Part shown: positions 1-6,133 of the stretch, one piece after another
How positions within the stretch are numbered: the stretch's first letter is position 1
How the letters are laid out: every line of letters starts with the position of its first letter
Source: Planctomycetota bacterium
Lineage (GTDB): Bacteria > Planctomycetota > B15-G4 > JADJEK01
Assembly (NCBI GenBank): GCA_044225365.1
Contig: JBGAIQ010000002.1
Coordinates: 192,001 to 256,000, forward strand
Length of the DNA stretch: 64,000 nucleotides
Reading direction: 5' to 3'
Notes under the pieces: model-generated
What the model was told of the DNA's origin: nothing
Databases searched by the model: none
The model's input: only the letters and a program-made list of their open reading frames with translations
Program-made: the position numbers and the translations under genes

Positions 1-1243
1 GCGATGTGCAGGTTGTAGGTGAGCTCGTCGGCTTCGATGCGGATCAAAGACGGGGCGACGACGTTCGCCGCGCGGTAGATCGCCTCGAGATCGACGTCGT
101 CGAGCGCGCCGTGGGCGCACTTCTTCAGGTCCTTCAGGAAATGGCGCCAGAAGGGTCGGCTGCGCGCGATCATGTTCTCCCAGAAACGGGATTGCGATTC
201 ATGCATTCCGTACGAAGCGGCCTCCGCGATCGGGGTCCGATCCCATTCGACCGGGAGACCCTGTTCGTAGATACCATGCCCCGCTTCGTGGACCACCGCG
301 AAGAAGCCGGGTCGCAGGTCGTCTTCCTGGAAGTGCCAGGTCAGACGAACGTCGCCGTGATGGATCTTCTGCGTGAACGGATGGGCCGAGACGTCGAGGC
401 GGCCGGATTCGAAATCGAATCCCATCTTCTTCGCGACCGCGAGCGTGAATTCCGCAGGTCGTCTTCCTGGAAGTGCCAGGTCAGACGAACGTCGCCGTGA
501 TGGATCTTCTGCGTGAACGGATGGGCCGAGACGTCGAGGCGGCCGGATTCGAAATCGAATCCCATCTTCTTCGCGACCGCGAGCGTGAATTCGCGCTGGT
601 TCTCGACCGCGATCTTGCGCTTCAGCGGGGAGGGATCGAGTCGGCGCGGACTCGCGACGATCCGCGCCACGAATTCGCGAAGGTCGGTCTCGAGTCCGGC
701 GAAGAGGCTCGCGAGCTTCTTCACGGTCATCCCGGGCTCGTAGTCCTCGAGCAGGGCATCGAGCGGGGACTCGACGTATCCGAGCTGTTCTGCGGCTTCG
801 CGTTTCAGGCGAAGGAGCTTCTCGAGGTGGGGCGCGAAGTCGGAGAAGCGATCCGCAGCGCGCGCTTCCGCCCACGCGGCCTGGCCGCGACTCGTCGCTT
901 CGGCGATCTCCCGAACGAGCCGGGCCTCGATGCGGAAGGATCGCGTGATGTCGCGGTGCGCGAGGCGGACCATCGCGCGTTCCTTCACCGAAAGGGACTC
1001 CGCCGCTTCCGGCTGCACGAGACGCGCGACGAGTTCACGCAGTTCCGGCGCCGTCGACCGGGCATGGACCGTACTCGCGAGCGTGGCGAGGACCGTCGCG
1101 CGCCCGGCGATGCCGAGAGATCCCTTCGGTTGGTACGTCTCTTGATCCCAATGCAGGAGGGCCGATGCGGACGCGAGGTCGGAGATCTCGGCAAGCGCGT
1201 CCCGCAGGCGGGAGAATTCCTGTCGCCAGTTGGTCGGGCCCAA
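1..1243 (-). pseudogene. Carboxypeptidase M32 (Taq/thermostable carboxypeptidase 1 family); runs off the window edge and is frameshifted by a 140-bp tandem duplication (real lesion or assembly artefact)
   Basis: N-terminal ALLHWDQETY motif and GRLDVSAHPFT. In the shifted frame past the duplication: VVHEAGHG (HExxH), GMHESQSRFWEN and IRIEADELTYNLHI. Probable TTG start at 1243 with GGAG upstream. Confidence 0.88.
313..592. repeat. Exact 140-bp tandem duplication (313-452 = 453-592)
   Basis: The sequence cgcaggtcgtcttcctggaag...gcgagcgtgaattc occurs twice head-to-tail. 140 is not a multiple of 3. Confidence 0.95.
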
Positions 1244-1319
1244 GACGTATCTCCAGAAGTGCCGGGCGGGCGTGGCGAGCCTACGGAAGTTCGCCCGTAC
1301 ACCGTTCGAGAAATGAACA

Positions 1320-1350
1320 CAGGCGATGCGCGGCTTCGGCGCATCGCCTG
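1320..1350 (-). terminator. Hairpin downstream of tRNA-Trp (probable terminator or processing stem)
   Basis: Perfect 12-bp inverted repeat caggcgatgcgc / gcgcatcgcctg with a 7-nt loop, followed on - by tgttcatttc. Confidence 0.6.
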
Positions 1351-1360
1351 CGTTCGTGTC

Positions 1361-1436
1361 TGGCAGGCCAAGAAGGACTTGAACCCTCAACCCCCTGATT
1401 TGGAATCAGGTGCTCTACCAATTGAGCTATTGGCCT
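1361..1436 (-). tRNA. trnW: tRNA-Trp (CCA)
   Basis: The reverse complement AGGCCAATAGCTCAATTGGTAGAGCACCTGATTCCAAATCAGGGGGTTGAGGGTTCAAGTCCTTCTTGGCCTGCCA folds as a cloverleaf with anticodon CCA and an encoded 3' CCA. Confidence 0.97.
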
Positions 1437-1511: not shown

Positions 1512-2915
1512 TCAGTCGCTGGCGTTGAGCTCGAGCAGGGCCCGGCGGGGAAGTTTCAGCTCCGAATCGAAGGTCCACGCAGCTTCTTCCCGCGGGTAGG
1601 CGCTCGTGGGAACCATCTGGCGGAGGGAGTGCCATTCGTTCAGGCTCGCCGCGATGCAATCCTCGGCGCGGTACAGGTGGGCGCGCAAGAATGCGATCGT
1701 TCGGGGGCTGGCATCGGCCGCCAGCGCGGTCATGTCGGCGATGCGCCGCTCGACGTAGGTGCGTTCGTCCTCGGACAGGATCGTGAATTGACCCTGGGCA
1801 CCGGAACGCGGGTGTTCCAGTGCGATGACGTACGAACTGCCTCGGGGAAGATCCTTGTCGAGGTCGACATGGAACTGATCGGCGGCGAGCACCTTCTCGA
1901 AGACCGTCCTGCCGCTCGCGATCTGGACGACGCGCAGCTTCACCTCGCCATGCAGGTCCGCGGACCGCCAAACGATTTGCGGCTTCGTATCGTCGATCCT
2001 CCCGAACGGCGACAGGATCTCGAGGAGCTGCGGTTCGAGTCGGCGCGCCCGCAGTTCGCGGATTCGCTGGATGCGGGCCTCGGGACGAACGGGTTCGAGC
2101 CGCTCTAGGCCGGGCGGCGGGTCGTCGACGAGCAGGCGTACTGCGTCGTCGAAGTGATCGGAGTTGATCGCCTCGGCGAGGCGCTGGACCGTCCGATCCG
2201 TGCGGTCGCTCGCGGGCTGATCGAGGATGTAGAACGTCGCGACCGTGATGACGATGAAGAAGACGAGGGCGAGAACGGCGGGGAGGTTCAGGATCCTCAC
2301 CGTCGCCGCGCGTTCGCGATCGCCGGGGCGCTGCCGCAGGAGTTGGTCGGCGAGTTCGAGCTTGCGGACCTCTGGCGGAACTTTGGCCTCGAGCGCGTGG
2401 CATTCGGCAAATCGCGGATCCGCGGGTGGAGATCCCGCCACGATCGAGCGGGCGATCGCCAGCGCGTCGAGTGGCGATTCGTTCGCGGGCCCGCTCCGCT
2501 TCTCGAGGATTCGTGTGTAAGCGTGAGCGCGGCAAAGATCGAAGATCGTGACGTCGCACGGCAGGTCCGTGATCCCGTCAGGACTTCGATTCGTCCGCGA
2601 GACGTAGAGGTAGCCGGTGATCGAATCGGTGAGCGCGACGGCTTCGCGCGGATCGGCGACGAGGGGTACGAGACTCGCGACGAGGCGCGGACGCACGACG
2701 TCGTGGTAGAGCGCCCACGCCGCCGGAGCGCCGTCCGCGAGCGCAGCGGCGAATCGGGCTTCACAGGAGTCGTCCGCGCCCGTGCCCCGATCACCCGCGA
2801 TGAGCCAATCGCGCAGTGACTCGATAGGGATCGTTGGAGGTGGGAGCGTCAACATGGCGACTGGATTCGAAAGCAGCGCAGCGGGGTCACTCGGCCGCTC
2901 GTTCGTAGGGAGCAC
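1512..2915 (-). CDS. Hypothetical single-pass membrane protein: weak sigma region-2-like N-terminus, TM helix, C-terminal DUF928-like/TPR-like extracytoplasmic domain
   Basis: 467-aa ORF. AWALYHDVVRPRLVASL..DPREAVALTDSI resembles ECF region 2; TM segment LPAVLALVFFIVITVATFYIL. Start may be 2854. Confidence 0.6.
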   Translation of the reverse strand: MLPTNERPSDPAALLSNPVAMLTLPPPTIPIESLRDWLIAGDRGTGADDSCEARFAAALADGAPAAWALYHDVVRPRLVASLVPLVADPREAVALTDSITGYLYVSRTNRSPDGITDLPCDVTIFDLCRAHAYTRILEKRSGPANESPLDALAIARSIVAGSPPADPRFAECHALEAKVPPEVRKLELADQLLRQRPGDRERAATVRILNLPAVLALVFFIVITVATFYILDQPASDRTDRTVQRLAEAINSDHFDDAVRLLVDDPPPGLERLEPVRPEARIQRIRELRARRLEPQLLEILSPFGRIDDTKPQIVWRSADLHGEVKLRVVQIASGRTVFEKVLAADQFHVDLDKDLPRGSSYVIALEHPRSGAQGQFTILSEDERTYVERRIADMTALAADASPRTIAFLRAHLYRAEDCIAASLNEWHSLRQMVPTSAYPREEAAWTFDSELKLPRRALLELNASD

Positions 2916-3001: not shown

Positions 3002-3631
3002 ATGCAAGGCCGAAGGATCGCCTCCATTGTGCCCGCGAAACGCAAGGAGACCCTGGTGTTTTTCTCTGTCGATGTCGAAGCGAGCGGAACGCTCCCCGGA
3101 TTCTACGACCTGCTCTCGATCGGAGCCGTTCCGGTCTACCGCCGGCACGGCGAGTACCAGATCGGCGAGGAGGAGTTCTACGTCGAGCTGAAACCAGTGC
3201 TCGGGACGTCGGATCCCGAATCGATGAAAGTGAACCGGCTCGATCTCTCGAAGCTCGCGCGGGACGGCGTCTCGCTGGTCGACGGCGCGCACCAATTCGC
3301 GAGGTTCGTGAAGACGCATACCCCGCGGCACGACGCTCCCGCGTTCGTCGGATACTGCGCGAACTTCGACTGGGCGTTCATCAACGACATGTTCAAGCGC
3401 GCCGGGATGGACAATCCCTTCGGCTACAAGGCGCTCGACATCCGTTCTCTGTCGTATGGGCTCTTCGAACTCGATTGGAGCCGGATCGGTCATACCCGGC
3501 TGCTGCAGCTGCTCGGCATGTCGCCGTTGTCGAAGGCCGAAGCCCACCATGCTCTCGCCGATGCGCGGCATCAGGCAGAGATGCTCGTCGGTCTCATCAA
3601 CCGGCGTGGAGAGATTCACCGCGCGCCGTAG
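3002..3631 (+). CDS. DEDDh 3'-5' exonuclease (DnaQ-like superfamily)
   Basis: ExoI SVDVEASG, ExoII NFDWAFI, ExoIII HHALADARHQ. Confidence 0.9.
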   Translation: MQGRRIASIVPAKRKETLVFFSVDVEASGTLPGFYDLLSIGAVPVYRRHGEYQIGEEEFYVELKPVLGTSDPESMKVNRLDLSKLARDGVSLVDGAHQFARFVKTHTPRHDAPAFVGYCANFDWAFINDMFKRAGMDNPFGYKALDIRSLSYGLFELDWSRIGHTRLLQLLGMSPLSKAEAHHALADARHQAEMLVGLINRRGEIHRAP

Positions 3632-5988
3632 CGTCCGTCCCCGTGCGCTTCGAACCGTGAACTGCCCTTGAGGACGCGGCGCAGCACCGCGCCTTCTGCC
3701 GGGGAGAGCTGGAGGCGGCGCATGATCGACGATGGGCGCATCGGTTCGCCGGCCTCGCGCAAGGTGGCGAGCGCTCGTTGCTCGAGGTCCTGATCGATGC
3801 GATCGTCGACGATTTGAATGAAGCCGCCGCTCACGAAGCGGAACCCACCGATTCGGCGCAGGAGATCGCCGAGGAGGACCGGATTGAAGACGAAGGGCGC
3901 CTCCGGGACGGCCGATCGGGCGACGTCGAGCAGATCGCCGAGCGCGGCGACACCGTGCGAAGCGAAGAGACTCGTTCGAATGCCTCCCGCGAGTCGGAGT
4001 CTGGCGTCGTCCGAAAGCGGATAGCGGCTCGCGAGATCGAACCACCCGCGAGCTACGCGGAGAAAGGTCTCGCGTCCGACGAGGGTCGCGGAGATCGCTC
4101 CATCCGATACGCGACGCTGCTCCTGGACGCGCTTTCGCAGGTCCGAGTAGGCGAGCGGTCCGTCGTGCGCGAGGAGGATCTTCTCGAGCAGGTCCGAGAC
4201 GTGCGCCAGATTCCCGTTCCCCATGTCGGCGAGTGCGAACGTGCCGCGACCGAGGTGGCGGAAGCGCGCGTCTTCGCGCATCACGGCGGCGACGACGAAT
4301 TCACTGACCTCGGAGAGTTCCTTCTCTTCGACGAGAATCTGATGCAGCAGCGACACGGACGTCGGTCTTCCGCTCTCCGAGAGTCGCACCGCAGCGCGTT
4401 CCGCGATCTTCGCGCACAATTCCTGGGGCACCGAGAATCGATGCGCGAGGTCGTAGACGCCGCGGCCGACGAGTACGAATCGTTCGTCGCGACACAGCCG
4501 AAGGCGGACCTTCTCCGCGTCCGCCGCCTCCCTGTCGCCCGCCGCTTCGAGGCGCGTCGCGATCTCCGTGAAGTGCAGCGGCTTCTTGGCGTTCACGAGC
4601 ACTGCGACCAGCGAGTCGCCGAGAGCTTGCGAGGGAGTGCGTACCCGTGCCGACCCCTCTTCGTCCTCGGTCACCTCGCGGTGGAAGACGTTTTCGCACA
4701 GGGCGCGAACGAGGGTCGCGCCATTCTCACCGAGGTCGAGCCCGCGGCCAGTCTCGGCGATCAGCGCCGCGAGTTCCTGCGAGCCACCACCGCGGCGAAG
4801 TCGCTTGCGAAGTCGCGCGGTCAGGGTGCACAGCGTCGCGGCGGGAACCGCGGCGAGCCGGCCGTCGGCGAGCCGTCCGACGTGATGCGGGAGCAGTTTC
4901 GCGAGGATGCGACCGAGATAGGAGGGAGGCATTTCGCTCACGGCGAAGAGTTCGTGCTGAACGAGCGCTTCGGGGCCGGCGAGCCCGCCATGGCGGAGCA
5001 GCGTCTGCGTCACGGCGTCGGCAATCGGTTCGATGTGCCCGGTCGCGAACCGGCGCAGTTTCGCCCATGCGCTGTGCTCGATCTGACAGGCTCGCGATTC
5101 GGTGATCTCGAGGATTGCGCCGACTTCGCCCAGCGTCTTCGGCGCTGCGCCGCTCCCGCCTTCCCGGAGCTCGACGAGCCGCCGCTCCTTGTCCTGCAGG
5201 CGGGCAAGGAGCGTCGCGAGCACGCCGTCGAATCCCGATCGGGAGTCCGCGGGCAGTGCGAGGAATCGTTCGACCTCCCGTTGGATGCGACGCAGCGTCG
5301 CCTGACCGAAGTTCTTGCGCACGAGAAGCGCATTCATGTCGAGGCCGGCGAAATCGCGCAGCGTTCGAATCCCGAGTTCCACGCACGCGCGTCGCGCGCG
5401 CCGCGGCAAATCGAGCGCGGCGATGGAGACGCGCGAGAGATCCGCGTCGTCGCTCGCCTCGCCCTGCATGCGCGGGACTTGCAGCAGCGGAGTCAGTCGA
5501 TTCTTCTCGCCGAGGGCGCTCGCGGCTGCGTGGATCGCACGGTTCACATCGGCGAGAGTCACCGCGCCGAAGTTCTTGTAGGCGAGGATCGTCTCGGGAC
5601 CGATCTTCATGTAGTCGCGAACCGTGAGGATGTGTTCACGCTGGAAGATGCTGCGTGCACGATTGGGAATGGGCAGGTCGACGAGGCGAAGGTCCTTGAT
5701 CGAGTCCGGCAGGTCACGGGGGAACGCCGCCGATGAATCATCGACGAGGCAATCGGTGCCCGAGGCCCGATAGACCTGGAGCACGGCCCGGACCTCTCGC
5801 AGACACGTGTGGCCAAAACCCGGAACTCGCAGCAAGTCCTCGTCGCTGCGAGCGATCAGGTCCCCGACGAGGGCAATCCCGCCCTCTTGTAGACGCCGGA
5901 GCGTCCGATTCGACAACGGCAGTGAGTCGATGGGAGTCTCGAGGTCGTCTCGCGACTGCCGATCGAGCGTTCGCTCCGTGCGCTGCAT
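3616..5988 (-). CDS. Protein with 3 RNA polymerase alpha-CTD-like repeats, a sigma70 region-4 HTH and multiple HARE-HTH-like winged helices
   Basis: Three IxxLxLxxR...GI..V.D......LL...NFG...L..I repeats (e.g. IDSLPLSNRTLRRLQEGGIALVGDLIARSDEDLLRVPGFGHTCLREV). Sigma4 motif KTLGEVGAILEITESRACQIEHSAWAKLR. Repeated ...F...G.G.(Y/F).L wing motifs. Confidence 0.85.
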   Translation of the reverse strand: MQRTERTLDRQSRDDLETPIDSLPLSNRTLRRLQEGGIALVGDLIARSDEDLLRVPGFGHTCLREVRAVLQVYRASGTDCLVDDSSAAFPRDLPDSIKDLRLVDLPIPNRARSIFQREHILTVRDYMKIGPETILAYKNFGAVTLADVNRAIHAAASALGEKNRLTPLLQVPRMQGEASDDADLSRVSIAALDLPRRARRACVELGIRTLRDFAGLDMNALLVRKNFGQATLRRIQREVERFLALPADSRSGFDGVLATLLARLQDKERRLVELREGGSGAAPKTLGEVGAILEITESRACQIEHSAWAKLRRFATGHIEPIADAVTQTLLRHGGLAGPEALVQHELFAVSEMPPSYLGRILAKLLPHHVGRLADGRLAAVPAATLCTLTARLRKRLRRGGGSQELAALIAETGRGLDLGENGATLVRALCENVFHREVTEDEEGSARVRTPSQALGDSLVAVLVNAKKPLHFTEIATRLEAAGDREAADAEKVRLRLCRDERFVLVGRGVYDLAHRFSVPQELCAKIAERAAVRLSESGRPTSVSLLHQILVEEKELSEVSEFVVAAVMREDARFRHLGRGTFALADMGNGNLAHVSDLLEKILLAHDGPLAYSDLRKRVQEQRRVSDGAISATLVGRETFLRVARGWFDLASRYPLSDDARLRLAGGIRTSLFASHGVAALGDLLDVARSAVPEAPFVFNPVLLGDLLRRIGGFRFVSGGFIQIVDDRIDQDLEQRALATLREAGEPMRPSSIMRRLQLSPAEGAVLRRVLKGSSRFEAHGDGRYGAR

Positions 5989-6086
5989 TCTCGCCTCTCC
6001 AAAAGGCGGCGATCCGATCGATCACCTACCCGGATCCCTTATCGAGCACCCCGGGTCGAAAAATGAAGCGACTGCGAAGAGGCTCG

Positions 6087-6133
6087 AAAAGCGCGAGGGA
6101 CGGCGCCCCGGTGTGGGGGAGCCGTCCCTCGCG
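6087..6133 (-). terminator. Intrinsic terminator downstream of bcp
   Basis: 13-bp stem cgcgagggacggc / gccgtccctcgcg, followed on - by a short T run. Confidence 0.65.

Follow-up and report, generated by a model that had tools for sequence, protein, structure and literature searches.

The minus-strand open reading frame (ORF) at positions 3616-5988 of a 64,000-nucleotide stretch of contig JBGAIQ010000002.1 from a Planctomycetota bacterium (assembly GCA_044225365.1; the whole stretch that was analysed is called the window below) is a genuine conserved gene. Its 790-amino acid product, P0001, carries three copies of the C-terminal domain of the RNA polymerase alpha subunit (alphaCTD), one sigma region 4 (sigma4) and a series of predicted winged helices, and, to judge from its domain matches, appears to contain only modules that read the upstream half of a promoter or bind DNA. 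The sigma4 recognition helix resembles that of FliA/sigma28, and the gene lies behind a promoter-like motif that also precedes motA, a pilT-like gene and pilM. The reading favoured here, tentatively and at rather less than even confidence, is that P0001 is a DNA-binding factor of the motility regulon that would occupy upstream promoter elements.

A preliminary description, made from the DNA letters alone, presented the protein as a mimic of the RNA polymerase holoenzyme. The upstream promoter-reading parts of the holoenzyme are indeed present, but the label is overstated: neither sigma region 2 or 3 nor the alpha N-terminal domain was found in the protein with Pfam and NCBIfam. The same description saw no catalytic domain, in agreement with the Pfam search, which detected no enzymatic family.

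Domain composition of P0001

The gene and its product are divided as follows.

3616-5988, minus strand: whole gene, 790 amino acids (P0001), stop codon included (ORF call, homologues, codon statistics)
5764-5958, minus strand: alphaCTD repeat 1, residues 11-75 (Pfam, best stretch 11-71)
5509-5706, minus strand: alphaCTD repeat 2, residues 95-160 (Pfam, profile-profile comparison)
5245-5436, minus strand: alphaCTD repeat 3, residues 185-248 (Pfam, profile-profile comparison)
5035-5244, minus strand: sigma region 4, residues 249-318 (Pfam, structure-sequence alignment, signature scans)
4633-5034, minus strand: middle region, residues 319-452, with an invariant DGRLAA (no family in Pfam)
4423-4632, minus strand: predicted winged helix A (wA), residues 453-522, HARE-HTH-like, with an invariant VRLRLCRD (Pfam, profile-profile comparison)
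4213-4422, minus strand: predicted winged helix B (wB), residues 523-592 (profile-profile comparison; aligns with the Pfam-positive HARE-HTH of P0033)
4015-4212, minus strand: predicted winged helix C (wC), residues 593-658, with an invariant VSDGAISATLVGR (Pfam, profile-profile comparison)
3793-4014, minus strand: putative winged helix D (wD), residues 659-732, wing GFRFVSGGFIQI (match to wB)
3619-3792, minus strand: predicted winged helix E (wE), residues 733-790, isoelectric point (pI) 11.1 (profile-profile matches to wA and wB)

The GC content at codon positions 1, 2 and 3 of the ORF is 0.74, 0.47 and 0.79, respectively, a pattern typical of coding frames when the genome is rich in GC, so that the ORF can be considered coding. 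A word-indexed search yielded 19 full-length homologues (780-813 amino acids, 50-63% identity, 97-99% of the query covered) and one 462-amino acid fragment, and the matches in the 12 genomes of the family to which the source genome belongs contain no internal stops. Relatives in the DNA contigs of three other studies are roughly 95% identical along the whole stretch, and 34 of the 40 listed strain differences inside the gene lie at third codon positions (codon phase was assigned by hand from the listed positions). A chance ORF was rejected on the basis of conservation, codon-position composition and third-position variation. In the one RNA run with sequence from this stretch, contigs cover the neighbouring AhpC gene only, plus one 24-base piece within the P0001 gene, which speaks neither for nor against expression.

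The whole protein is basic (pI 9.15), and its linkers are acidic (pI 4.0-4.4) and poorly conserved (identity 0.22-0.34). The longest near-invariant runs (at least 95% identity to P0001), LDLPRRARR, GQATLRRIQ, ITESRACQIEH, VRLRLCRD and VSDGAISATLVGR, fall in putative DNA-contact elements. Four cysteines (C62, C202, C301 and C499) are invariant and a fifth, C431, is conserved in at least 90% of the sequences; at least two of the five, C301 and C499, lie inside putative recognition helices. A redox link between the conserved cysteines and the adjoining peroxiredoxin gene is possible.

The three alphaCTD repeats and the sigma4 named in the preliminary description are both confirmed by Pfam. RNA_pol_A_CTD matches three stretches (E value 3.5e-24, 84.8 bits against a cut-off of 23.8), and the repeats recognize each other with probabilities of 96.6-98.4% in hhalign, with the highest value for repeat 2 against repeat 1. 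Residues 16-71 align without gaps to residues 253-308 of Escherichia coli alpha, with the invariant R28 and G59 of repeat 1 opposite R265 and G296; the equivalents in repeat 2 are R110 and G141, and this Arg/Gly pair is invariant in all three repeats. R265 and G296 are taken here to form the core of the UP-element determinant of E. coli alpha. Repeat 3, with a pI of 11.5 and 25 invariant residues, including the LDLPRRARR run, also contains GQATLRRIQ; it abuts sigma4 almost without a linker, and repeats 1 and 2 are joined through poorly conserved acidic linkers. Repeats 1 and 2 appear to be flexibly tethered, and the fusion of repeat 3 to sigma4 would mimic the way in which the proximal alphaCTD and sigma4 naturally lie next to each other on UP-element and -35 DNA.

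Sigma70_r4 matches residues 260-312 (E value 3e-9, 36.7 bits against a cut-off of 24.1). The recognition helix ITESRACQIEH (residues 295-305) is invariant in the family, and TESRACQIEH is present in all 13 of the family rows shown. Among 25 distant homologues, 19 have an RpoD-type xRERxRQ helix and none has an ESR-type helix. A gapless alignment of 58 residues connects this domain with region 4 of SigA in solved holoenzyme and flap-chimera structures; the inter-helix loop has the length found in group 1 sigma factors, and TRERIRQIE of SigA is replaced by TESRACQIE in the family. In a six-frame translation of the source genome, the pattern [ST]ESRxxQ occurs in a sigma4 context in four ORFs only, namely the P0001 gene and the three best FliA_WhiG matches (254.6, 192.9 and 186.7 bits against a cut-off of 189.6), and TESRxCQI is common to P0001 and the genome's own FliA-type sigma.

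In Pseudomonas aeruginosa sigma28, according to the excerpted text of PMC12784957, S224 and Q228 of region 4.2 make base-specific contacts with the -35 element, and mutants at these positions are impaired in transcription and flagellation. In the aligned solved chain, a Ser and a Gln separated by four residues occur only in ESRVSQ, so that S224 and Q228 correspond to S298 and Q302 of P0001. By sequence, therefore, the recognition helix of P0001 is of the FliA/sigma28 type, an assignment that concerns the helix type only and not membership among sigma factors. The source genome contains about 90 Sigma70_r4 matches, a good number of which fall within ORFs measuring about 750 to 1384 amino acids, and one of its three FliA/WhiG-type sigmas lies within a 677-amino acid ORF.

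For the C-terminal half, the preliminary description counted at least five clear and two weaker winged helix-turn-helix domains and pointed to the HARE-HTH fold. For P0001 as a whole, HARE-HTH (PF05066) falls just below the gathering cut-off (residues 461-514, 25.2 bits against 25.9), with 17.4 bits for the single best domain in the genome scan, although PF05066 is listed for 16 of the 20 full-length family rows and scores strongly at the corresponding positions of distant homologues. WH_PARP12 is a weak, sub-threshold match at residues 595-646 (E value 0.0018). Isolated pieces gave only weak Pfam matches as well (HARE-HTH at 0.0019 for wA and WH_PARP12 at 0.00089 for wC), and no family at all was obtained for the isolated middle region and wD.

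Slices of the alignment of 20 family sequences were also compared profile against profile. The pairs wA-wC, wB-wE, wA-wE, wA-wB and wB-wD reach probabilities of 96.8, 94.3, 93.3, 83.3 and 75.5%, respectively, and the wA and wC profiles cross-match each other's region. The Pfam HARE-HTH segments of distant homologues (whole-protein E values 1e-21 to 3e-4) align onto wA, wB and wC; in particular, that of P0026 (whole-protein E value 1e-21) aligns with wC. In 10 members of the family, wE shows scattered sub-threshold IclR, MarR, Rok and HARE matches, and the sub-threshold Pfam matches of wD in the same number of members include no winged-helix family. The least conserved repeat is wD (mean identity 0.42). 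The first half of the middle region matches wD with a probability of 70.2%, and searches of Protein Data Bank sequences with the wA, wB, wC, wE and middle-region profiles returned no meaningful match. Taken together, the profile comparisons and the distant alignments support four related HARE-HTH-like winged helices (wA, wB, wC and wE) out of those originally counted; for the fifth, wD, the indication is weak, and a sixth, degenerate copy in the middle region is a guess.

A promoter-like motif shared with motility genes

The upstream regions of the P0001 orthologues cannot be aligned, save for one bipartite motif that they have in common. In the window, this motif and a terminator-like element lie between the P0001 gene and the AhpC gene upstream of it.

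6038-6068, minus strand: promoter-like motif CTTCA-N19-CGATAAG (kept in 10 of 12 family genomes)
6087-6130, minus strand: GC-rich inverted repeat and short T run after the AhpC gene, terminator-like (by eye)

The motif begins 80 nucleotides upstream of the start codon (6068), and its CGATAAG block ends 50 nucleotides upstream (6038). In the form CT[TC][CA]A-N19-CGATAAG, it is found upstream of the gene in 10 of the 12 family genomes. The inverted repeat was not reported by a terminator scanner, its T run consisting of only four T, and GGAG stands a few bases ahead of the ATG of P0001. With the terminator-like hairpin after AhpC and GGAG before its ATG, the P0001 gene looks like a separate transcription unit.

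Three matches to the strict pattern were obtained in the 6.5-Mb genome, and none to the reversed control: one is upstream of the P0001 gene, one begins 109 nucleotides ahead of the start of a gene of the MotA_ExbB family, and the third, on contig C61, is within coding-like sequence and was taken as a chance match. A MotB-like ORF comes after the motA-like gene, which is oriented divergently from a flagellin gene. The intergenic region between the flagellin gene and motA (G000:C95:324750-325060 and the orthologous loci L129-L139) contains two conserved, divergent promoter-like motifs, of which the one toward motA, with N19 spacing, is present as CT[TC][CA]A-N19-CGA[TC][AC]A in all 11 genomes; shuffled 420-nucleotide windows matched in 6 of 2000 cases. 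The motif is likewise kept ahead of the gene for a pilT-like ATPase (9 of 12 family genomes) and ahead of pilM (8 of 11), with GCCGATAAG as a frequent form. A second Flagellin_N-type ORF (contig C70) is located directly behind another gene and hence has no promoter of its own.

Genome-wide, 8 of 6036 candidate ORF upstream windows match the motif, representing 7 sites; shuffles gave 2.2 on average and at most 4, and the reversed control gave 2. These sites precede the genes for P0001, MotA, the PilT-like T2SSE ATPase, PilM, a receiver-domain protein (assigned by eye) and two unknown ORFs. A looser promoter expression was dropped as uninformative: it gave 49 matches, mostly in coding-like sequence, and missed motA. 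The -10 block of this motif class matches the sigma28 -10 consensus GCCGATAA as given in the excerpts of PMC12784957. An FlgM model had no match in the 94%-complete genome, a weak negative considering that FlgM is small and divergent; on this slender indication, FlgM may be absent from the family.

Distribution, neighbourhood and relatives

P0001 is encoded by a full-length, single-copy gene in all 12 genomes of one uncultured Planctomycetota family (the source genome and 11 of 11 others); in four other families of the order, the matches are limited to alphaCTD or sigma4 pieces. In a sample of 301 genomes of the phylum, with four candidates scored for each, the part following sigma4 was detected only in the family (the source genome and 5 of 5 others) and in one distant protein of 775 amino acids with 23% identity. 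The named homologue records are all metagenome-assembled genomes of Planctomycetota, some labelled Phycisphaeraceae, and searches of plasmids, phages and viral contigs turned up no relatives. The source genome encodes a second alphaCTD protein (G000:C95:121011-121433; L049:2976-4289, minus strand) of 437 amino acids, with tetratricopeptide (TPR) repeats followed by two alphaCTD repeats; ORFs of about 460 amino acids in the other families of the order match the same residues of P0001 as does this protein.

The neighbours of the gene are an M32 carboxypeptidase gene, a conserved unknown ORF, a convergent DEDDh exonuclease gene and, upstream on the same strand, the gene for an AhpC/TSA peroxiredoxin; the neighbourhood also includes genes for a pyridoxal phosphate (PLP) enzyme, for a peptidase of family S9 and for an aromatic amino-acid lyase of the histidine/phenylalanine ammonia-lyase type. 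This order is kept in six family genomes. Of the two settings raised as a check in the preliminary description, a defence island and a housekeeping neighbourhood, the conserved synteny with AhpC, the PLP enzyme, the S9 peptidase and the ammonia-lyase-type gene points to the second, and the P0001 gene is read here as chromosomal and vertically inherited. The exonuclease gene overlaps its 3' end.

3002-3631, plus strand: Rv2179c-like DEDDh 3'-5' exonuclease, convergent (overlaps the 3' end of the P0001 gene by 16 bp)

The M32 carboxypeptidase (window positions 3-1390, minus strand) is encoded in two overlapping frames, one (341-1390) covering profile positions 2-252 and the other (3-875) positions 204-354; a pseudogene, a frameshift or an error in the sequence could be the cause. 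The conserved unknown ORF (1512-2915, minus strand; 467 amino acids) has a coding-like GC content of 0.80 at third codon positions and 33-38% identity to counterparts in two family genomes; neither Pfam nor PADLOC gave a match for it.

The exonuclease is possibly linked to P0001. It matches the PADLOC model PDLC00753 ('Effector', described as an exonuclease) with an E value of 9.1e-44 and a CRISPR-associated DEDDh model with 5e-14. Within the order, its phyletic pattern is the same as that of P0001 (11 of 11 genomes of the family, f1, and 0 of 29 in the other families), and the two genes are adjacent in 10 of the 11 assessable family genomes. Together with the occurrence of alphaCTD and sigma4 in the defence proteins PglW and MzaA, these observations could be read as an anti-phage arrangement in which P0001 senses foreign DNA or phage proteins aimed at alphaCTD or sigma4, with the exonuclease as the effector. 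Such a role, proposed in the preliminary description as a decoy or sensor for phage proteins, is very improbable. The two genes are convergent and overlap tail to tail, and so do not form an operon; the whole neighbourhood is syntenic, which makes their adjacency unspecific, and in one family genome they lie 11.7 kb apart. Moreover, exonuclease homologues are present in 37 of the 301 genomes of the phylum sample, and in the 31 that remain after the six of family f1 are set aside there is no match to P0001 beyond the sigma4 region; nor were P0001-like domains found within about 1.5 kb of the exonuclease at 10 such loci. No other neighbour of the P0001 gene matches PADLOC, the matches of P0001 itself are confined to domains shared with PglW and MzaA, and the uniform single-copy presence in all 12 genomes, with no relatives on mobile elements found, is unlike the patchy distribution of defence genes.

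The resemblance to the two defence proteins is local. An alphaCTD-like segment of PglW from type 2 BREX is similar to P0001 (PADLOC E value 1.6e-9, profile positions 802-863 of 1403; whole-protein score 23.5 bits against 990), and in PglW winged helix-turn-helix modules come after the alphaCTD-like domain, according to the excerpted text of PMC12839542. For MzaA of the MZA system, the similarity is to sigma4 (PADLOC E value 0.0018, profile positions 646-703 of 726; whole-protein score 24.1 bits against 800). Unlike PglW and MzaA, P0001 has no kinase, nuclease or ATPase parts, and no BREX or MZA partner genes were found among the neighbours examined.

Beyond the family, P0001 belongs, by its domain content, to a broader class of fusions with the order alphaCTD(n)-sigma4-winged helix(n) and no catalytic domain. 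An exhaustive profile-free search retrieved 1725 proteins at an E value of 0.001 or lower, 187 at 1e-10 or lower and 4 at 1e-30 or lower. When 147 listed representatives from outside the family were scanned with family-derived profiles, which are family-specific and make the counts lower bounds, the module combinations were distributed as follows.

alphaCTD, sigma4 and winged helix: at least 42 of 147, all 42 in that order
sigma4 and winged helix: 32 of 147
alphaCTD only: 30 of 147
alphaCTD and sigma4: 22 of 147
alphaCTD and winged helix: 18 of 147
winged helix only: 3 of 147

The copy number of alphaCTD ranges from 0 to 11 across the relatives, with 1 to 11 detected by Pfam in example proteins, and Atlas clusters of such architecture come from Verrucomicrobiota, Pseudomonadota, Myxococcota, Kiritimatiellota, Planctomycetota, Bacillota and Saccharimonadota. 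Since the same order recurs in 42 of 147 distant representatives and in several phyla, and records of such proteins already carry generic names at the National Center for Biotechnology Information (NCBI), the suggestion that the gene represents an undescribed system goes too far. Literature searches found no functional study of the alphaCTD-sigma4-HARE-HTH architecture; the HARE-HTH paper of Aravind and Iyer (Cell Cycle, 2012) reportedly mentions bacterial proteins that combine alpha-subunit and sigma features. The family of P0001 is like this class in its module set, module order and lack of an enzymatic domain, and is distinguished by three alphaCTDs and about five winged helices, by the sigma28-type helix (found in 0 of 25 distant homologues) and by the motility-class promoter.

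In some of the relatives, the modules are fused to other proteins. P0053 and P0181 (1595 and 1541 amino acids, respectively) join an alphaCTD-sigma4 module to UvrD-like helicases, P0122 (1396 amino acids) joins four alphaCTDs to a ResIII helicase, and one relative is fused to a MerR-type helix-turn-helix domain. A search for longer fused forms returned one protein, a fusion to a UvrD-like helicase.

P0001 differs from the known proteins that share its modules. It has the CTD fold of RpoA in three copies with flexible linkers between them but no alpha N-terminal assembly domain, and the RpoA equivalog models reach at best 69.1 bits against a cut-off of 277, at profile positions 244-311 only. 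A second RpoA was rejected, the N-terminal domain being missing and the equivalog cut-off far from reached; the genuine rpoA of the genome is elsewhere (G000:C93:48318). With FliA/sigma28 it shares the recognition-helix signature of region 4 but not regions 2 and 3, and the FliA_WhiG model yields 25 bits against 189.6. A true sigma factor was likewise rejected: among sigma domains only Sigma70_r4 is present, and sigma models match over their last 55-60 positions, far below the cut-offs. The predicted winged helices resemble the N-terminal HARE-HTH domain that Gram-positive bacteria have in their RNA polymerase delta subunit (RpoE), but there are four to five copies rather than one, they are fused to alphaCTD and sigma4, the C-terminus is basic instead of forming an acidic tail, and the organism is a planctomycete rather than a member of Bacillota.

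Possible functions of P0001

The favoured reading, that P0001 is a DNA-binding factor of the motility regulon, combines the domain content with the promoter motif. Without sigma regions 2 and 3 and the alpha N-terminal domain, P0001 could not form or join a holoenzyme in the normal way; having a sigma28-type recognition helix, it should read a -35 element of the sigma28 type. Driven by the promoter class of motA, the pilT-like gene and pilM, it would be produced together with the motility apparatus and would then occupy the -35 and upstream region of promoters of this kind, that of its own gene among them; the additional alphaCTDs and the winged helices would contribute affinity or avidity on the flanking DNA. 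The regulon would be tuned, shut off or marked as a result. Domain content, conservation, synteny, the sigma28-type helix and the shared motif are observations; DNA binding, the sites bound and the sign of the regulation are predictions. The promoter-occluding regulator of the preliminary description is compatible with this picture and is sharpened by the sigma28-type sigma4 and the motility-class motif.

A number of points weigh against this reading. The HARE-HTH of the delta subunit binds RNA polymerase, and so the winged helices could be protein-binding rather than DNA-binding. The DNA determinant of alphaCTD is retained only at R265 and G296; in repeat 1, Thr and Cys stand opposite K298 and S299. 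Sister families of the order do not have the protein, and hence it is not a general part of motility control. The motif itself is imperfect evidence: 2 of the 12 family genomes have no match to the expression upstream of the gene (one of these had only 122 nucleotides available), about 2 of the 7 genomic sites are expected by chance, and the regulon was derived post hoc, from the motif of the P0001 gene. The motif on the flagellin side of the intergenic region is spaced differently (CTCAAG-N17-CGAACAA, in 5 of 11 genomes by regular expression, with visible variants elsewhere), and with three FliA/WhiG-like sigmas in the genome there are several candidate readers. Compared with the sigma28 elements in the excerpts of PMC12784957, the -35 block (CTTCA, CTCAA/CTCAAG) resembles but does not equal TCTAAAG, and by hand count two more bases separate it from CGATAA than in the P. 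aeruginosa fliC promoter.

P0001 could instead be an accessory factor of RNA polymerase, with sigma4 on the beta flap tip, the HARE-type winged helices on the core and the alphaCTDs on DNA or activators, that would compete with sigma factors (possibly sigma28) or recycle polymerase. This alternative is rather less likely, but it is a serious rival with several observations on its side. The gapless alignment of sigma4 is with SigA region 4 as seen in holoenzyme and flap-chimera structures, the lineage has a highly conserved beta flap-tip helix (19 sequences, 89% mean column identity), HARE-HTH is by its Pfam name the delta-subunit fold, and the helicase fusions of P0053, P0181 and P0122 recall HelD and UvrD, which are polymerase-bound helicases. 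On the other hand, the most invariant stretch of the protein is a DNA-recognition helix with the sigma28-type Ser and Gln, which flap docking would not need; sigma region 2, the main core-binding part, is missing; and the C-terminal domain, with its pI of 11.1, is the opposite of a delta-like acidic tail.

A narrower form of the favoured reading, and by itself an unlikely one, is that P0001 works at the DNA level as a feedback brake on the sigma28-type motility regulon, or as its bookmark: a promoter-acting 'anti-sigma' that would replace the holoenzyme at the -35 and UP elements of the motA and pilus promoters and of its own.

It is also quite unlikely that P0001 is a general nucleoid or architectural protein whose nine to ten small DNA-binding domains coat or bridge DNA with little specificity, for example in compacting the chromosome of a motile daughter cell. 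Many small basic modules on acidic, poorly conserved linkers would suit such a role, the spread of alphaCTD copy numbers among relatives (0 to 11) points to avidity and not to one fixed site, and a motility-class promoter fits a cell-type-specific protein. The Atlas model of P0015, a homologue at 52% identity, has a low global predicted template modelling score (pTM 0.37) and a moderate local predicted distance difference score (pLDDT 0.70), as expected for independent domains. However, near-invariant runs of 8-13 residues in a family only about 50% identical suggest defined partners, and every member has a single sigma28-type sigma4 in a fixed position.

If P0001 is indeed a brake or bookmark, it would represent a new way to regulate a sigma regulon and would provide the first function for a domain architecture that is spread over many phyla; if it competes with the holoenzyme for upstream elements, free-standing promoter-recognition modules that work as regulators would be a new principle. 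Should it bind the polymerase instead, it would be a new accessory subunit. The family offers a testable handle in the combination of a sigma28-type helix with a small, well-conserved class of motility promoters, and may inform cell-type-specific transcription in Planctomycetota, a phylum in which regulation is poorly known.

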